Under the pieces are notes generated by a model. That model was not told the origin of the DNA and did not search any database. It worked only from the letters and a program-made list of their open reading frames with translations. From Longimicrobiales bacterium (GTDB lineage Bacteria > Gemmatimonadota > Gemmatimonadetes > Longimicrobiales > Gaopeijiaceae), in assembly GCA_965219445.1 (NCBI GenBank), contig CBDCNQ010000005.1:1600001-1664000 (forward strand): 64,000 nucleotides of DNA, in the 5' to 3' direction. Positions 10,953-32,163 of this stretch are shown in pieces; the first letter of the stretch is position 1, and every line of letters begins with the position of its first letter. The translations under genes were made by a program, and so were the position numbers.

Positions 10953-11292
10953 GGGGGCGGTCTATGCGTAGTAGCACATTGGGATCCTGCGGAGAAGGTA
11001 GATGACTCATCGCTTGCTGCTGCCTGACCTTGAAATACGCTCGGGAGCGTTCGGAAAGGTCCACCGGAACAACATCTACAATGTCATCGCTGTGTCCGTA
11101 CTAGGCGGTGAGCCAATGCGCCTGTGAGCTAGGATCAAAGGCATCATAGGGGCATGGCGACCGCTACCGGTACCGATCAGCAGCGAAGCAGCCCGAAGAC
11201 GAAGAGGCGTTCTCCTCCGGGAGCGGGTGCGCGTTCATCATTATTCGCGCAAGCAAGCAACCCAACCCGTCCTACCCAAGAGGAGGATGCCC

Positions 11293-12540
11293 ATGGAGAG
11301 GTATATCGGACTCGACGCACACGCGTCGAGCTGCACGCTGGGGATTGTAGGCCCCAGCGGCAAGCGCTTGGGCTCGCAGGTGGTGGAGACGAACGCGCGG
11401 GCGCTGATCGAGGTGCTGCGAGGGATTCCGAGGAACCGGCACTTATGCCTGGAAGAAGGGACGCTGTCGGGGTGGCTGTACGAGGTGCTGAAGCCGCACG
11501 TGGAGGAGCTGACGGTGGCGGGGGTCGGCAAGAGCCGGGGCCCGAAGACCGACAAGCTGGACGCGTTTGCCCTGGCGGAGAAGCTGCGGATCGGATCACT
11601 GGAGACGACGGTCTACAAGAACCGGGGCCAGTTCAGGCGGCTGGGGGAACGGGCGAAGAGCTACGACTTCTTGGTCGGCGACACGGTGCGGGTGAAGAAC
11701 CGGCTCAAGAGCGTGCTGCGCTCGAGAGGAGTGGCCTACGGCGCGGGGCGCTCGGTCTACTTAAAGCGCGACCGGGAGGAGTGGTTGGCCAAGCTGCCGG
11801 AAGCGAGCAGGACGACGGCCGGGTTGCTGTACGAGGAGCACGACGCACTCGTGGCATTGAGGGCGAAGGCCGAGAAGGCGTTGCTGGCGGAAGCACGCAA
11901 GCATCGAGAGTGGCATGTGCTGAAGACGTGCCCGGGTCTGGGTCCGATCCGGACGGCGGAGCTCCTGCCGGTGGTGGTGACGCCGTACCGGTTCCAGAGC
12001 CGGAGCAGGTTCTGGGCGTACTGCGGACTGGGCGTCGTGATGCGGAGCTCGTCGGACTGGGTGCGGGGTCCGGGTGGGCGGTGGGTAAGGGAACCGGTAC
12101 AGCAGACGCGGGGGCTGAATCGGAACTTCAACCACACGCTGAAGCGTGTGTTCAAGGGCGCAGCGACGACGGTGATCGGTCGGGCCGAGGACGAGCCCTT
12201 GTACCGCCACTACGAGCGACTCCTGGAGGGGGGCACGAAGCCGAATCTGGCGAAGCTGACGATCGCGCGTCAGCTCGCCTCGATCGTGCTAGCGGTGTGG
12301 CGCACGGGCGAAGCGTACGACCCAAGAGACTGGAAGCGACGGAGTAAACCGGCCTGGGATCGGCGAGCGTGGGGTCGAAAGCGGTCACAACATGGGGTCC
12401 GACGAAACGGAAGCGAACCGGTTACAGGGGACAGCATCCATACACACCGTGGGCCGGGGCAGAGAGCCCAAGCCCCCACTCAAAGGCTATGCACCCCTGG
12501 AAGAGCCGAACGAAGCGATGGGCCACAGAGTCCCAGATAG
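11293..12540 (+). CDS. IS110-family DEDD recombinase/transposase (C-terminus probably frameshift-extended; native end likely near 12347)
   Basis: IGLDAH, CLEEG, KTDKLDA, CPGLG, YCGLG; RBS AGGAGG. Confidence 0.92.
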   Translation: MERYIGLDAHASSCTLGIVGPSGKRLGSQVVETNARALIEVLRGIPRNRHLCLEEGTLSGWLYEVLKPHVEELTVAGVGKSRGPKTDKLDAFALAEKLRIGSLETTVYKNRGQFRRLGERAKSYDFLVGDTVRVKNRLKSVLRSRGVAYGAGRSVYLKRDREEWLAKLPEASRTTAGLLYEEHDALVALRAKAEKALLAEARKHREWHVLKTCPGLGPIRTAELLPVVVTPYRFQSRSRFWAYCGLGVVMRSSSDWVRGPGGRWVREPVQQTRGLNRNFNHTLKRVFKGAATTVIGRAEDEPLYRHYERLLEGGTKPNLAKLTIARQLASIVLAVWRTGEAYDPRDWKRRSKPAWDRRAWGRKRSQHGVRRNGSEPVTGDSIHTHRGPGQRAQAPTQRLCTPGRAERSDGPQSPR

Positions 12541-12720
12541 AAGGATGGTTCCCGCTCCAGAGCGGAGAACGCGACGGCTGTGAACGTCTTCCGGACTGCG
12601 ATGCGGACCCTGCGAGCGCACCCCTCCCCACCCTGAGTCGTCGACCGGGCAATCCAAACCATGCGGACGCCGACGGTCAAAAAATGAGCCGACGGCGCGT
12701 GGGGAAGGTGCGTCTTGACC
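12350..12720 (+). ncRNA. Candidate bridge/seek RNA region of the IS1111-type element (boundaries unknown)
   Basis: Stem-loop 12425-12499 with internal-loop strands TACACACC and TCAAAGG matching the insertion target; ATAGAAGG (12537-12544) matches the element's own right end. Confidence 0.75.
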
Positions 12721-12737
12721 GCCAGCCCCATAGAAGG

Positions 12738-13245
12738 GGGGCACGAAGCCGAATCTGGCGAAGCTGACGATCGCGCGTCAGCTCGCCTCGATCGTGCTAG
12801 CGGTGTGGCGCACGGGCGAAGCGTACGACCCCAAGAGACTGGAAGCGACGGAGTAAACCGGCCTGGGATCGGCGAGCGTGGGGTCGAAAGCGGTCACAAC
12901 ATGGGGTCCGACGAAACGGAAGCGAACCGGTTACAGGGGACAGCATCCATACACACCGTGGGCCGGGGCAGAGAGCCCAAGCCCCCACTCAAAGGCTATG
13001 CACCCCTGGAGAGCCGAACGAAGCGATGGGCCACAGAGTCCCAGATAGAAGGATGGTTCCCGCTCCAGAGCGGAGAACGCGACGGCTGTGAACGTCTTCC
13101 GGACTGCGATGCGGACCCTGCGAGCGCACCCCTCCCCACCCTGAGTCGTCGACCGGGCAATCCAAACCATGCGGACGCCGACGGTCAAAAAATGAGCCGA
13201 CGGCGCGTGGGGAAGGTGCGTCTTGACCGCCAGCCCCATAGAAGG
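12738..13245 (+). repeat. 508-bp tandem duplication of the IS110 3' end (copy of 12230-12737)
   Basis: Direct comparison; two 1-bp indel differences noticed. Confidence 0.95.
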
Positions 13246-13341
13246 GTGTGTAAAAAAAGAGGCGACGTACCTTTCCGCTAGGTAGTAAGAAGTTAACCAG
13301 CGAATCCCGGGTGAGCGCCCGGGGGAAAGGAACGATGCCTC

Positions 13342-14586
13342 GTGAGGAAGAATATGGTGGGACCCGAGAGTGAGTCCAGCACGCCGACGTGGGAGTGCTT
13401 GGAAGCGCTGGTTCGTGAGAAGGCCCAGGAGATGGTCCAGCGGATTCTGGAGGAGGAAGTGACGGAGTTGCTCGGCCGGGAGAAGTCGGAGCGGAAGACG
13501 GTCGTAGACCCGGCGCCAGGCTACCGCAACGGCTACGGCAAGGCTCGGCGGCTGGCGATGAGCTCGGGCACGATCATGCTCCGACGGCCCCGGGTTCGAG
13601 GCATTGAGGAGCGGTTCGAGAGTCGGGTGTTGCCGTTGTTCGCACGACGGACGAAGGAGGTGGGTGCTCTGCTTCCGGAGCTGTATCTGCACGGGCTGGC
13701 GGAGGGAGACTTCGAGCTGGCGATGCGGGGCCTGCTGGGCGAGGGGGCCCCGTTGTCGAAGTCTTCGATTTGGCGGCTGCGGGCGGGATGGACAAGGAAA
13801 TTCGAGGAATGGTCGAAGCGCTCGCTGGCCGACCGTGAGGTCGTCTACGTCTGGGCGGACGGGATCTACGTGAAGGCGGGGCTCGAGCGGGACAAGGCAG
13901 CGCTGCTGGTGGTTCTCGGTGCGATGCGAGATGGTACGAAGGAGGTGTTGGCCCTGAGATCGGGCTACCGAGAGTCGGTCGAGTCCTGGTCCGAGGTGTT
14001 GCGGGATCTGAAGGCACGCGGCATCGAGGCGCCCCGGCTTTTGATGGCGGACGGCAACGCGGCGATCTGGGGCGCAGTACGGCAGGTATGGCCTGAGGCG
14101 GGCGAGCAACGGTGCTGGAACCACAAGATGAGGAACGTGCTGGACCGGCTGCCTCAGCGGGAGCAGAGCGAGGCGAAGGACCTTCTCAGGACCGTGGTCT
14201 ACGCACCGAGGCGGTCCGAGGCGCTGAAGGCCCGTGAGGCGTTCGCCAGGCGCTACAGACCGTGGTATCCGAAGGCGGTGGATGTACTCGAGGACGACTG
14301 GGAGCGGATGGTGGCGTTCTACGACTTCCCCGAGGACCACTGGAAGCATCTACGCACGACGAACGTGGTCGAGAGCCCCTTTGCCGCAGTACGGCTCAGG
14401 ACAACGGCGGCGAAGCGCTTCAAGCGGGTCGAGAGCGCTACGGCGCTGATCTGGAAGCTGCTCTTGGTGGCGGAGAAGCGCTTCAGAAGGCTCGACGCTC
14501 CTCACCTCCTCAAGGACGTATTTGAAGGAAGAAAGTTCGAAGACGGAAAGCCCGTCTCAACCCAACAGCGGAAAAACGCCGCCTGA
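13342..14586 (+). CDS. IS256-family (mutator-type) transposase
   Basis: YRNGY, YVWADGIY, MADG, QRCWNHK, LRTTNVVES. Confidence 0.95.
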   Translation: MRKNMVGPESESSTPTWECLEALVREKAQEMVQRILEEEVTELLGREKSERKTVVDPAPGYRNGYGKARRLAMSSGTIMLRRPRVRGIEERFESRVLPLFARRTKEVGALLPELYLHGLAEGDFELAMRGLLGEGAPLSKSSIWRLRAGWTRKFEEWSKRSLADREVVYVWADGIYVKAGLERDKAALLVVLGAMRDGTKEVLALRSGYRESVESWSEVLRDLKARGIEAPRLLMADGNAAIWGAVRQVWPEAGEQRCWNHKMRNVLDRLPQREQSEAKDLLRTVVYAPRRSEALKAREAFARRYRPWYPKAVDVLEDDWERMVAFYDFPEDHWKHLRTTNVVESPFAAVRLRTTAAKRFKRVESATALIWKLLLVAEKRFRRLDAPHLLKDVFEGRKFEDGKPVSTQQRKNAA

Positions 14587-14750
14587 AACATTTACACACC
14601 TATTGACCCAACCTCTGCGCCTGACTGCCGACGCATTGAGCGCAAATGAGTTCTCATCCTACGTGGAGAACCTAAAGAAGCGATTAGACACTCTTGTGGC
14701 AGAGGCGAGGGCCGACGAGACGAAGCTTCGAAAGAGCCAGGGTCTACCCC

Positions 14751-15640
14751 TTATGCGGCCGTCAGCTCCCGATATCGAAGAGCCTCCCGATCCAGGAGCC
14801 GGGTCATGATCGTCTCGAAGATGTACGGGTTGTGCCGGTTGTTGAACCTGAACTCGACCTCGGAGAGGTAGGCGTCCAGGTGCTTCGCGCTGATCTGGTG
14901 CCACGCGCCGACGATGGAGCGCTTGAGCAGGCTCCAGACGCCCTCGACGCTGTTCGTGTGAACGTCACCGGCCACCCCACTCCTCCTCGCAGTGCCTGAC
15001 CGTCTCGTGGCGCGTGTCGTGGTCGGCGATCCCGAGGTAGGACTTGAGCTCGTCGGTGTAAATCGCCTCGGTGTCGGGCCGCGTGTTCCTGGCGATGAAG
15101 GCGTGGAGCGTGGCCCGCTTGATGTCGGGAACGGCCTTGATGCGGACCTCGCCGCCACGCTGGACGGCCCCTGCCACCCATGTCTTGTCGACCCGGTTGC
15201 CGGTCCCGACCCCGCGCCTCTTGCCGCTGATCAGGGTCTCGTCCACCTCGACCACCCCGAACAGGGTCGGTCCGCCGACTACACGGCTCTTCATGGCCGT
15301 ACGGATGCGGTGGCACAGGTGCCACGCGGTCTTGTAGGAGACGCCGATCATCCGCTTGATCTGGTTCGCGCTGATGCTCTTCTTCGACTCGCAGATCAGG
15401 TAGATCGTCACGAACCACTTCCAGAGCGGAAGGTTCGTGTTGTCGAAGATCGTCCCAGACGTGACGCTGAAGCGGTAGCGGCACCCGTTGCAATCGAACT
15501 GGTCGCGGGTGCTGATCTCGGAGACGGACAGGCCCCCGCAACGGGGGCAGCAGACGCCAGCGGACCAGCGCAGCTTTTCGAGATACTCGCGGCAAGTCTC
15601 TTCGTCGCGGAACTTCTCGATCAAGGAAATCAGATTGATT
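14751..15640 (-). pseudogene. IS1595-family transposase with +1 frameshift near 14976
   Basis: Zn ribbon CPRC/CNGC, VEVDET, IYTDE, then VHTNSVEGVWSLLKR...YLSEVEFRFNNR in another frame. Confidence 0.85.
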
Positions 15641-16229
15641 CTCCCGTCCTAGCTGTCTCTCGCGAAGGCGGTACAGCGCTAATGGGCGCGGCGTTTCAAC
15701 GGACCGGACCAGCGGCCTCCCGGTTTCGACGCTCGCTGGCCAGATAGGCCGACCGGTCGTCCATGAGTCGGCCAAAGTGGGATCGCTTCGGTCGAGGTAT
15801 GGAATCACCCTGCCGACGGGTGAGGCTCGGTGCGCACGGGCGACCGGACTCCTTTGATGGCAGCCACTTTCAACCTCCTACCGGTCCGCGTCATCACACC
15901 ACGACCGAACGGCTACCTTCGGTCGGCGCTCATCCGGCGACGCCTCGTATCGGGCGCGGCCAACCCCTGCTGCAGCCGCCCGTTCGTTTTGTATATCCGA
16001 AGTGATCCACAACGTATCGGCTACCGGCTAACCGCAAGCGTAGCAATAGGTTACTGAATCATTCGTCGGTTCAACCAGGACTGCGCGATCTGCTGCACTT
16101 GCCGTCCTACCATACCTGATGCTGCCGTGCTTAAAGGGCGGGGAAACGGCATCAAGTGGCGGGTATGACTGGCAGGCATCTCGAACCCGGATCAAGGACC
16201 AGTTGTTTGGGGTCAGCACCGGTCCATTC

Positions 16230-28792: not shown

Positions 28793-29216
28793 GAGAAACC
28801 CTCCTGTGGCAACCTAATCGCGGCGATCGGACCCCACGGATGCTCAGGACGGGGGCACGGGCAACTGATGTCAAGGGGCTGCTCGTGGCAGGCCAAAGGT
28901 TATAAGCTTAGGCCAGTATGGTCCCCACTGTCAAGCCCATAACCAGTCGTTGCTTAATCTCGTACAGCATATGAGCGGACACATCGCGGCTACCGACTCC
29001 GCGGCCAGACGCCAGCTGCGACGGCCAGCGGATCCAGAGGGTTCCGTAGGAGCTAGGATCAAAGGCATCATAGGGGCATGGCGACCGCTACCGGTACCGA
29101 TCAGCAGCGAAGCAGCCCGAAGACGAAGAGGCGTTCTCCTCCGGGAGCGGGTGCGCGTTCATCATTATTCGCGCAAGCAAGCAACCCAACCCGTCCTACC
29201 CAAGAGGAGGATGCCG

Positions 29217-30464
29217 ATGGAGAGGTATATCGGACTCGACGCACACGCGTCGAGCTGCACGCTGGGGATTGTAGGCCCCAGCGGCAAGCGCTTGGGCTCG
29301 CAGGTGGTGGAGACGAACGCGCGGGCGCTGATCGAGGTGCTGCGAGGGATTCCGAGGAACCGGCACTTATGCCTGGAAGAAGGGACGCTGTCGGGGTGGC
29401 TGTACGAGGTGCTGAAGCCGCACGTGGAGGAGCTGACGGTGGCGGGGGTCGGCAAGAGCCGGGGCCCGAAGACCGACAAGCTGGACGCGTTTGCCCTGGC
29501 GGAGAAGCTGCGGATCGGATCACTGGAGACGACGGTCTACAAGAACCGGGGCCAGTTCAGGCGGCTGGGGGAACGGGCGAAGAGCTACGACTTCTTGGTC
29601 GGCGACACGGTGCGGGTGAAGAACCGGCTCAAGAGCGTGCTGCGCTCGAGAGGAGTGGCCTACGGCGCGGGGCGCTCGGTCTACTTAAAGCGCGACCGGG
29701 AGGAGTGGTTGGCCAAGCTGCCGGAAGCGAGCAGGACGACGGCCGGGTTGCTGTACGAGGAGCACGACGCACTCGTGGCATTGAGGGCGAAGGCCGAGAA
29801 GGCGTTGCTGGCGGAAGCACGCAAGCATCGAGAGTGGCATGTGCTGAAGACGTGCCCGGGTCTGGGTCCGATCCGGACGGCGGAGCTCCTGCCGGTGGTG
29901 GTGACGCCGTACCGGTTCCAGAGCCGGAGCAGGTTCTGGGCGTACTGCGGACTGGGCGTCGTGATGCGGAGCTCGTCGGACTGGGTGCGGGGTCCGGGTG
30001 GGCGGTGGGTAAGGGAACCGGTACAGCAGACGCGGGGGCTGAATCGGAACTTCAACCACACGCTGAAGCGTGTGTTCAAGGGCGCAGCGACGACGGTGAT
30101 CGGTCGGGCCGAGGACGAGCCCTTGTACCGCCACTACGAGCGACTCCTGGAGGGGGGCACGAAGCCGAATCTGGCGAAGCTGACGATCGCGCGTCAGCTC
30201 GCCTCGATCGTGCTAGCGGTGTGGCGCACGGGCGAAGCGTACGACCCAAGAGACTGGAAGCGACGGAGTAAACCGGCCTGGGATCGGCGAGCGTGGGGTC
30301 GAAAGCGGTCACAACATGGGGTCCGACGAAACGGAAGCGAACCGGTTACAGGGGACAGCATCCATACACACCGTGGGCCGGGGCAGAGAGCCCAAGCCCC
30401 CACTCAAAGGCTATGCACCCCTGGAAGAGCCGAACGAAGCGATGGGCCACAGAGTCCCAGATAG
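29217..30464 (+). CDS. IS110-family DEDD recombinase/transposase
   Basis: Same protein as copy 1. Confidence 0.92.
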   Translation: MERYIGLDAHASSCTLGIVGPSGKRLGSQVVETNARALIEVLRGIPRNRHLCLEEGTLSGWLYEVLKPHVEELTVAGVGKSRGPKTDKLDAFALAEKLRIGSLETTVYKNRGQFRRLGERAKSYDFLVGDTVRVKNRLKSVLRSRGVAYGAGRSVYLKRDREEWLAKLPEASRTTAGLLYEEHDALVALRAKAEKALLAEARKHREWHVLKTCPGLGPIRTAELLPVVVTPYRFQSRSRFWAYCGLGVVMRSSSDWVRGPGGRWVREPVQQTRGLNRNFNHTLKRVFKGAATTVIGRAEDEPLYRHYERLLEGGTKPNLAKLTIARQLASIVLAVWRTGEAYDPRDWKRRSKPAWDRRAWGRKRSQHGVRRNGSEPVTGDSIHTHRGPGQRAQAPTQRLCTPGRAERSDGPQSPR

Positions 30465-30644
30465 AAGGATGGTTCCCGCTCCAGAGCGGAGAACGCGACG
30501 GCTGTGAACGTCTTCCGGACTGCGATGCGGACCCTGCGAGCGCACCCCTCCCCACCCTGAGTCGTCGACCGGGCAATCCAAACCATGCGGACGCCGACGG
30601 TCAAAAAATGAGCCGACGGCGCGTGGGGAAGGTGCGTCTTGACC
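30274..30644 (+). ncRNA. Candidate bridge/seek RNA region, copy 2
   Basis: Same stem-loop at 30349-30423. Confidence 0.75.
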
Positions 30645-30757
30645 GCCAGCCCCATAGAAGGGTGTGTAAAAAAAGAGGCGACGTACCTTTCCGCTAGGTA
30701 GTAAGAAGTTAACCAGCGAATCCCGGGTGAGCGCCCGGGGGAAAGGAACGATGCCTC

Positions 30758-32002
30758 GTGAGGAAGAATATGGTGGGACCCGAGAGTGAGTCCAGCACGC
30801 CGACGTGGGAGTGCTTGGAAGCGCTGGTTCGTGAGAAGGCCCAGGAGATGGTCCAGCGGATTCTGGAGGAGGAAGTGACGGAGTTGCTCGGCCGGGAGAA
30901 GTCGGAGCGGAAGACGGTCGTAGACCCGGCGCCAGGCTACCGCAACGGCTACGGCAAGGCTCGGCGGCTGGCGATGAGCTCGGGCACGATCATGCTCCGA
31001 CGGCCCCGGGTTCGAGGCATTGAGGAGCGGTTCGAGAGTCGGGTGTTGCCGTTGTTCGCACGACGGACGAAGGAGGTGGGTGCTCTGCTTCCGGAGCTGT
31101 ATCTGCACGGGCTGGCGGAGGGAGACTTCGAGCTGGCGATGCGGGGCCTGCTGGGCGAGGGGGCCCCGTTGTCGAAGTCTTCGATTTGGCGGCTGCGGGC
31201 GGGATGGACAAGGAAATTCGAGGAATGGTCGAAGCGCTCGCTGGCCGACCGTGAGGTCGTCTACGTCTGGGCGGACGGGATCTACGTGAAGGCGGGGCTC
31301 GAGCGGGACAAGGCAGCGCTGCTGGTGGTTCTCGGTGCGATGCGAGATGGTACGAAGGAGGTGTTGGCCCTGAGATCGGGCTACCGAGAGTCGGTCGAGT
31401 CCTGGTCCGAGGTGTTGCGGGATCTGAAGGCACGCGGCATCGAGGCGCCCCGGCTTTTGATGGCGGACGGCAACGCGGCGATCTGGGGCGCAGTACGGCA
31501 GGTATGGCCTGAGGCGGGCGAGCAACGGTGCTGGAACCACAAGATGAGGAACGTGCTGGACCGGCTGCCTCAGCGGGAGCAGAGCGAGGCGAAGGACCTT
31601 CTCAGGACCGTGGTCTACGCACCGAGGCGGTCCGAGGCGCTGAAGGCCCGTGAGGCGTTCGCCAGGCGCTACAGACCGTGGTATCCGAAGGCGGTGGATG
31701 TACTCGAGGACGACTGGGAGCGGATGGTGGCGTTCTACGACTTCCCCGAGGACCACTGGAAGCATCTACGCACGACGAACGTGGTCGAGAGCCCCTTTGC
31801 CGCAGTACGGCTCAGGACAACGGCGGCGAAGCGCTTCAAGCGGGTCGAGAGCGCTACGGCGCTGATCTGGAAGCTGCTCTTGGTGGCGGAGAAGCGCTTC
31901 AGAAGGCTCGACGCTCCTCACCTCCTCAAGGACGTATTTGAAGGAAGAAAGTTCGAAGACGGAAAGCCCGTCTCAACCCAACAGCGGAAAAACGCCGCCT
32001 GA
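30758..32002 (+). CDS. IS256-family transposase
   Basis: Same protein as 13342-14586. Confidence 0.95.
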   Translation: MRKNMVGPESESSTPTWECLEALVREKAQEMVQRILEEEVTELLGREKSERKTVVDPAPGYRNGYGKARRLAMSSGTIMLRRPRVRGIEERFESRVLPLFARRTKEVGALLPELYLHGLAEGDFELAMRGLLGEGAPLSKSSIWRLRAGWTRKFEEWSKRSLADREVVYVWADGIYVKAGLERDKAALLVVLGAMRDGTKEVLALRSGYRESVESWSEVLRDLKARGIEAPRLLMADGNAAIWGAVRQVWPEAGEQRCWNHKMRNVLDRLPQREQSEAKDLLRTVVYAPRRSEALKAREAFARRYRPWYPKAVDVLEDDWERMVAFYDFPEDHWKHLRTTNVVESPFAAVRLRTTAAKRFKRVESATALIWKLLLVAEKRFRRLDAPHLLKDVFEGRKFEDGKPVSTQQRKNAA

Positions 32003-32163
32003 AACATTTACACACCTATTGACCCAACCTCGTTCCGTAGCCCAGTATGGCACTAGCCCTCCTAATCTTGACACAGGTGAGCCATCCTAGCTCCCTTTGC
32101 CGTGAGGCTGGGGGCTAACTGCCGCCTGGGCCGAGTTGCCTAGTACTGTCAAGGAGGCGAGCC

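Follow-up and report, generated by a model that had tools for sequence, protein, structure and literature searches.

An IS110-family element with a predicted 3' bridge RNA occupies a fixed base of the IS256 left inverted repeat in a Longimicrobiales genome

The window (the whole stretch of 64,000 nucleotides that we have analyzed, from a Longimicrobiales genome) contains an insertion sequence placed inside another one. The outer one belongs to the IS256 family: it has a Mutator-type DDE transposase, encoded at 13342-14586 on the + strand (PF00872; NF033543 with 295 bits, cut-off 150), 25-bp imperfect terminal repeats and target duplications. Its right inverted repeat is found at 14591-14615 (- strand) and reads TCAATAG where the left repeat has TCAAAGG. 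The left repeat is split in two parts. The outer 15 bp, at 11126-11140 (+), end in the left target TCAAAG, which includes the core AG, and the inner 10 bp, at 13245-13254 (+), are the right target GGTGTGTAAA. The left copy of the IS256 target-site duplication is found at 11117-11125 (+) and shares 8 of its 9 bases with 14616-14624. Between both parts of the repeat, at 11141-13244 (+), lies the first copy of an IS110-family element, tandem duplication included, which starts with GCATCAT and ends with ATAGAAG. A second composite is present at 29050-32031 (+), formed by IS256 (29050-29064 and 30661-32031) and the IS110-family element (29065-30660). It has no tandem duplication, the same frameshift as the first copy and a perfect 9-bp target-site duplication. 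An ORF of 334 aa (14804-15808, - strand) directly follows the first IS256 copy and has no Pfam match at E 0.001.

In the genome census, the element interrupts the IS256 left repeat at TCAAAG^GGTGTGTA in 23 of the 24 copies (the caret marks the junction). The left junction is TCAAAG^GCATCAT and the right junction ATAGAAG^GGTGTGTA, with the same orientation throughout these 23 copies. The joined flanks give the empty IS256 left repeat, which is present intact 45 times in a related genome (G065), and no target duplication is seen; the identification of IS256 and of its empty site in a first-pass annotation of this DNA was correct. That annotation also described the insertion as identical in both copies and bordered by an AAGG repeat, and here it has to be amended. 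The first copy contains a 508-bp tandem duplication, in which 12229-12736 (gene tail, RNA module and right end) is repeated at 12737-13244 (+). The junctions in relatives fix the crossover, and therefore the core is AG and no bases are duplicated, so the earlier core and boundaries were off by one base. A four-base AAGG core or duplication is ruled out, since in relatives the left junction can read AA^GCAT and the right one AAG^A. The apparent repeat arises because donor and target have AAG^G in common in this element.

The gene of the element (11293-12540, +) codes for a DEDD recombinase, with 152 bp of non-coding DNA at the left end and a long non-coding region of 389 bp at the right end, downstream of the gene. 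Intact alleles code for 351 aa, with the stop codon at 12345-12347. In both copies of the window one C is missing (12321-12323; 30245-30247), a late frameshift which extends the reading frame to 415 aa. The C is kept in 18 of the 23 full genomic copies, and the nine of those with a located start give 351 aa. PF01548 and PF02371 both score above cut-off, and residues D9, E55, D88, D91 and S254 (the numbering begins one codon before the Met) are invariant in 40 homologues. The element is a member of the IS110 family. The protein is divergent, since NCBIfam NF033542 scores 112 against a cut-off of 140. Its identity is 18% to IS5075, 18-20% to IS621 and IS5075 taken together, and at most 27% to the plasmid IS110 matches listed; the comparison with named members covers four reference proteins, with 18-28% identity. 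The recombinase aligns to IS621, and the best structural matches of its AlphaFold model (mean pLDDT 83) are IS621 and ISCro4 (Foldseek E about 1e-12). A TIGR-Tas identity was considered and rejected: NF052498 gives 57 bits against a cut-off of 100, and 9mty ranks under IS621.

The left end of the element (11141-11159, +) contains a short imperfect sub-terminal repeat and a predicted -10 box, CATCAT (11142-11147). The first right end (12715-12736, +) contains TTGACC, the predicted -35 box of a junction promoter, followed by a sub-terminal repeat and the terminal ATAGAAG. When both ends are joined, a TTG-hexamer, 17 bp and CATYAT are found in 22 of 22 distinct end pairs, an arrangement as expected for a putative circle-junction promoter. 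No abutted circle junction is found in the assembly, and a simple promoter scan of the integrated right end gave nothing.

We predict a bridge RNA in the 3' non-coding end. Its putative target-binding stem-loop, suggested by folding and by consensus covariation, is located at 12425-12499 (+). Covariation also supports its two loop strands. The 5' strand (12440-12449, +) is the reverse complement of the right flank GGTGTGTA, and the 3' strand (12478-12487, +) consists of ACTCAAAG plus GC, that is, the left flank and then the first two bases of the element. We take this GC extension to be handshake-like. A predicted donor-binding stem-loop follows at 12502-12551 (+), where ATAGAAG (12537-12543) equals the right end of the element. 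The motifs read in the first pass are all confirmed at their positions: TACACACC at 12441-12448, TCAAAGG at 12479-12485/6, ATAGAAGG at 12537-12544 and the stem CAGGGG..CCCCTG at 12425-12499. The internal loop described there also appears in the single-sequence fold (z -1.1 to -1.7, weak by itself) and in the consensus fold obtained from 44 sequences, out of 82 distinct regions. The consensus has two internal loops and 26 pairs, 12 of them with two-sided changes, and 94.8% of its cells are paired, compared to 31.6-53.0% in slid controls. When the 389-nt end was resampled 20,000 times with a Markov model, both guide words occurred together only once. An Rfam search over the RNA region found no family. 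The proposal that the second stem-loop holds the element's own right end is upheld for one strand of the donor loop; the other one, the 5' strand, could not be assigned, as it has no more than about four possible pairs with the left end, and inspection showed no evident covariation.

In the genome assembly (4.56 Mb, 5 contigs), the element is represented by 24 left ends and 23 terminal right ends. Copies at sites unrelated to the guide, which the first pass had named as the observation that would speak against its proposal, are not seen: 23 of the 24 copies are on target, and the remaining one matches the guide, so the proposal survives. The IS256 hosts are 80-100% identical to the IS256 of the window and include isoforms with about 80%, 86%, 89% and 97% identity. 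The only copy outside IS256, at C2:336726, reads ACTCAAAG^GTGTG. The 3' loop strand is matched there in 8 of 8 positions, better than at the IS256 site (6 of the last 7), and the right half is shifted by one base. This locus found no match when sought in five related genomes. The assembly of this genome retains no exact empty target. Its 29 intact IS256 right repeats differ from the target at the core, and the element is inserted in none of them. Five IS256 left ends are free, each with a substitution or a one-base indel inside the 14-bp target; apart from this change, three of these copies show 99.9-100% identity to occupied ones along 1,386 bp.

Some additional features of this genome may be mentioned. 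The 23 element copies show 37 variable columns with mosaic haplotypes, which suggests recombination or gene conversion between copies. The copy at C2:603187 has an internal deletion, and the one at C5:124036 is truncated, with rearranged pieces. Among 28 IS256 left ends, ten have their own target-site duplication, and for eleven the matching sequence is the right flank of a different copy, an indication of many inversions or translocations between the 3-kb repeats, or else of misjoins. At G000:C4:1169767-1171666 (L230), a group II intron of 1.9 kb (Rfam RF02001, RF01998) is located 3 bp downstream of an element right junction and within the same IS256 repeat, forming a three-layer nest. There are 13 copies of this intron, mostly after hairpins or terminators ending in GTG, a placement which is presumably IIC-like; only one of them is at the L230 site. 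A decayed stand-alone relic at L004:1290-1430 (G000:C5:about 1023300) has a related bridge RNA with other loop strands and no gene. Finally, L003 (G000:C2:661602) is a lone left end of a related element, located behind the flank GGGATAG, the commonest target type of the clade.

The covariation between guides and targets, a check proposed in the first pass, has been carried out on 158 loci: 76 from genomes, 80 from metagenomes and two from the genome itself. The target loop could be parsed in 99 of them, 52 with a left junction and 60 with a right junction. We have kept one locus per distinct guide and used a corrected register for five guides affected by a lazy match at GGATAGGC. The anchors were designed after the data had been seen, and the permutation ignores kinship. 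With these definitions, both strands of the target loop track the insertion flanks. The 3' strand matches the left flank in 6.26 of 7 positions on average (31 distinct guides; permuted 3.63 +/- 0.22), with 27 of 31 guides matching at least 6 of 7 and four matching poorly. The 5' strand matches the right flank in 5.35 of 7 (43 distinct guides; permuted 3.30 +/- 0.16), 32 of 43 matching at least 5 of 7 and 11 poorly; here the best of three registers was taken, for observed and permuted values alike, because the match shifts by 0-2 bases between relatives. None of 20,000 permutations reached the observed mean for either strand, and controls with swapped geometry gave no signal. The last core base, A or G, follows the guide in 31 of 31 cases (22 G, 9 A), while the A before it is constant. 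A single-base change between L065 and L078 is tracked. In the second loop, the 3' strand equals the last seven bases of the element in 36 of 37 distinct ends, three variants being tracked, and the single miss is a parsing artefact.

Several relatives have targets of their own. Many of them (L053, L062, L113, L119, L129-L137, L152 and others) have GGATA[A/G]^GRA..(C)AA as insertion site, in many cases with AAGCTGC or AAGCGGG behind it, which suggests a common repeated target. In a subgroup made up mostly of Acidobacteriota, with about 40% identity (L039, L044, L048, L049, L054, L055, L061), left junctions end in CAC^GCATTAT, a third core variant (AC). A sister element with 95% protein identity, L013 (G001:C1:4813430), has the guide ATCACTAG and adjoins an IS256 right repeat, with an unrelated right flank. 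This is a possible reprogramming toward the IS256 right repeat, seen in a single copy whose right flank does not match.

The exact site in 23 of 24 copies, together with a predicted guide RNA in the tail which spells that site, makes this element a likely RNA-guided parasite of a transposon. We assign a probability of about 0.9 to this reading: an IS110-family element at an exact base of the IS256 left repeat, which likely arrived there by RNA guidance through its predicted 3' bridge RNA. The first-pass proposal of a bridge or seek-type RNA programmed against that repeat is thus strongly supported by the 23 of 24 copies, the guide-matching off-target copy and the covariation. A single entry into an IS256 end would also produce a shared site, by descent, if the IS256::IS110 composite had then been spread passively by the IS256 transposase. 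Thirteen occupied IS256 copies, those of the window included, in fact show 100% identity with the window's along 1,386 bp. Whole composites are bordered by target-site duplications, seven occupied copies retaining their own, and five copies have the same frameshift in common. On the other hand, near-identical elements are found in IS256 isoforms only about 80%, 89% and 86% identical to that of the window, and one copy lies outside IS256, at a site which matches the guide. Furthermore, guides track flanks in the relatives, among whose loci an IS256 starting just downstream is seen for near-identical copies only, and the tip of the composite retains only 15 of the 25 bp of the repeat. Passive spread is therefore very unlikely as the origin of the pattern, and some movement of composites may take place alongside targeting.

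Even less probable is a recombinase which reads the site directly, or by homology between donor and target, the loop matches being relics of a captured flank with no guiding role. Donor and target do have AAG^G in common, and the RNA is here a prediction. Against this, the bipartite loop is conserved and has the two matches on its opposite strands, and among proteins of 50-80% identity these matches vary together with the target. The same geometry has been shown experimentally to guide ISEc11 (PMC11187229).

The tandem duplication of the first copy joins the terminal AG of the element to an internal AG of the gene. A threefold repeat of 458 bp in L009 is joined likewise, 19 bp further on, and the internal joint sites do not resemble the guide. 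The duplication might reflect a one-ended strand transfer dependent on the core and independent of the guide; one-ended transfer is described in 10.1101/2025.10.25.684509. Smaller duplications at the right end, of 3 bp in L006 and about 17 bp in L080, are further signs of slips at the terminal core. It might also be thought that the duplication, the frameshift and the mutated free repeats are errors of long-read assembly or polishing, side features which do not concern the targeting. The frameshift is a homopolymer indel, one free variant is a deletion in an A run, and the free variants TCGAAG and TCAGAAG equal a chimera with the right end GAAG of the element, which mis-mapped reads from occupied copies could produce. 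Because of this terminal GAAG, these two variants, out of five free ones in the genome, may be excision scars or polishing chimeras. However, L009, from a different genome, has a triplication built in the same way, with its joint 19 bp away, five of the 23 copies have the frameshift at one and the same position, and the TCAAATGG repeat is found in eight separate copies of the related genome G062 and cannot derive from the right end of the element. We consider assembly errors a rather doubtful explanation for the three features.

The label IS1111-type, used in the first pass, applies to the layout of the element only. As in the strict IS1111 group (PMC11187229), we find a long 3' non-coding region and the same order of the two target matches. 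That group has near-perfect repeats of 11-13 bp, with extensions of 7 or 6 bp at the left and 3 bp at the right, and the motif GL-P----S(T)G; IS5075, used as a control, gave 12-bp repeats and 7+3 extensions. In our element and its relatives (36 loci), the extensions are 4+4 and the sub-terminal repeats are short: they reach at most about 7-10 perfect bp in some relatives and contain a bulge in the element itself. Its motif is GLGVVMRSSSD, and the 18% identity to IS5075 does not amount to the full-length relatedness to IS1111 transposases which defines the group. The short repeats with 4+4 extensions and the SSSD motif place it outside the strict IS1111 group, although by its sequence it would work like an IS1111-type seek/bridge system.

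The closest parallel in habit is IS4321/IS5075, also IS110-family elements with a fixed base and orientation in the terminal repeat of another element, a long 3' non-coding end and rare look-alike off-targets (ureC for IS5075, PMC8269217). In IS5075 the sub-terminal repeats are 12 bp long and perfect, their extensions measure 7 and 3 bp, the motif is GLVP..STGG (L227) and the host is Tn21. The repeats of our element are short and often imperfect; about 14 residues are inserted in addition to the motif mentioned above, and the host is IS256. The seekRNA systems ISEc11, ISKpn4 and ISPa11, compared by their published description in PMC11187229, differ in end geometry and C-terminal motif, and the conserved second loop matching the right end is present in our element. 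IS110-type elements with a 3' non-coding region are already noted in that text, so the layout of the element has a precedent. Similarity to IS621 and ISCro4 (PMC11208160; PDB 8wt6, 9t56) includes the fold, the DEDD residues and serine, two internal loops predicted for target and donor, and a predicted junction promoter. It also includes the CT core, which in our element is read on the opposite strand; its first base varies, and this is the base that is reprogrammed in IS621 (PMC11208160). Unlike them, our element shows 18-20% identity, has its RNA in the right end and not in the left one, reads its target in reversed orientation, and is inserted in an IS end instead of a REP sequence. ISEc21, of the IS110 group, is also inserted by RNA guidance into another insertion sequence; its RNA is located 5', and its targets are the catalytic codons in transposase genes of the IS3 family. 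The downstream RNA module of ISPpu9 (ssr9) can also have extra copies, which move as separate circles, while the module of our element is tandemly repeated in place.

IS256 ends were not found as targets in the titles and abstract openings searched. The word IS256 is absent from the main text of PMC11187229 and PMC11208160, and their supplements could list such targets. The idea of a transposon inside a transposon with a readable guide is strongly supported as regards guidance; the habit itself is known, from IS4321/IS5075 on Tn21 ends and ISEc21 in IS3 genes. The mechanism is known and published, while the host, IS256, is new and the enzyme is divergent. A new programmable recombinase, as suggested in the first pass, is plausible. 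Given the published mechanism, this is a clean and useful example for the specialist, and no surprise.

By analogy with IS621, ISEc11 and CazIS110, the element would form a circle, whose joined ends would create a TTGACC-17-CATCAT promoter transcribing the gene and the RNA. The complex of recombinase and RNA would then pair with both target strands and recombine at the AG core. The AG core corresponds to CT, the core of IS621, when the complementary strand is read, so that target and donor would be in reverse orientation. Insertion would put 1.6 kb between the conserved inner GGTGTGTAAA and the tip of the IS256 repeat. The interrupted IS256 end would likely be disabled until the element is lost, and the element would gain a renewable safe site. 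Restoration of the target on excision is disputed in print: it was not seen in PMC11187229 and 10.1101/2025.10.25.684509, and excision is reported in PMC13626964 to be less efficient than insertion. From these findings, an occupied IS256 end probably stays disabled most of the time.

The occupancy of the site has been compared in this genome and five related ones, by counts of exact patterns which can miss variant copies. G062 has five occupied and no perfect empty sites, as well as ten free left repeats with changes in the core or directly beside it (eight TCAAATGG, two TCAATAAG); the nine of these free variants that were measured are 97.9-99.8% identical to an occupied copy. G063 has six occupied sites and one perfect empty site, and G064 two and none. 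G065 has a single occupied site and 45 perfect empty ones. In the only element detected there, two residues which the alignment shows as invariant are substituted (R50Q and G102R), and the IS256 copies expanded in this genome belong to a different isoform, about 89% identical. G001 has five perfect empty sites and one full element, with a changed guide, which abuts a right repeat. When 60 relatives were searched, full copies were found in one only, G008, with the same coordinates as in G063. None of the statements made here is based on the unpublished genome G038.

This pattern, taken from six genomes only, suggests saturation, escape and release. The different IS256 isoform of the G065 expansion, and the two free variants of this genome which may be scars or chimeras, speak against it. 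A tentative reading, possible and still on the improbable side, is an arms race within the genome. An RNA-guided element of a divergent lineage, neither IS1111 nor IS621, would saturate and silence an IS256 family. IS256 would escape by changes of one or two bases in the 14 bp read by the guide and then multiply (eight copies of one variant in G062), and in the presence of a mutated parasite, as in G065, it would reach 45 free copies.

If this is true, the element would be a programmable and self-renewing brake on a transposon. With this element, RNA-guided targeting of the ends of mobile elements is likely extended to IS256. The divergent enzyme family, with 82 distinct natural guide pairs, offers a set for learning pairing rules and a candidate orthologue for genome editing. 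The occupancy pattern makes the possible control of one transposon by another directly testable, and putative escape alleles are already available for this.
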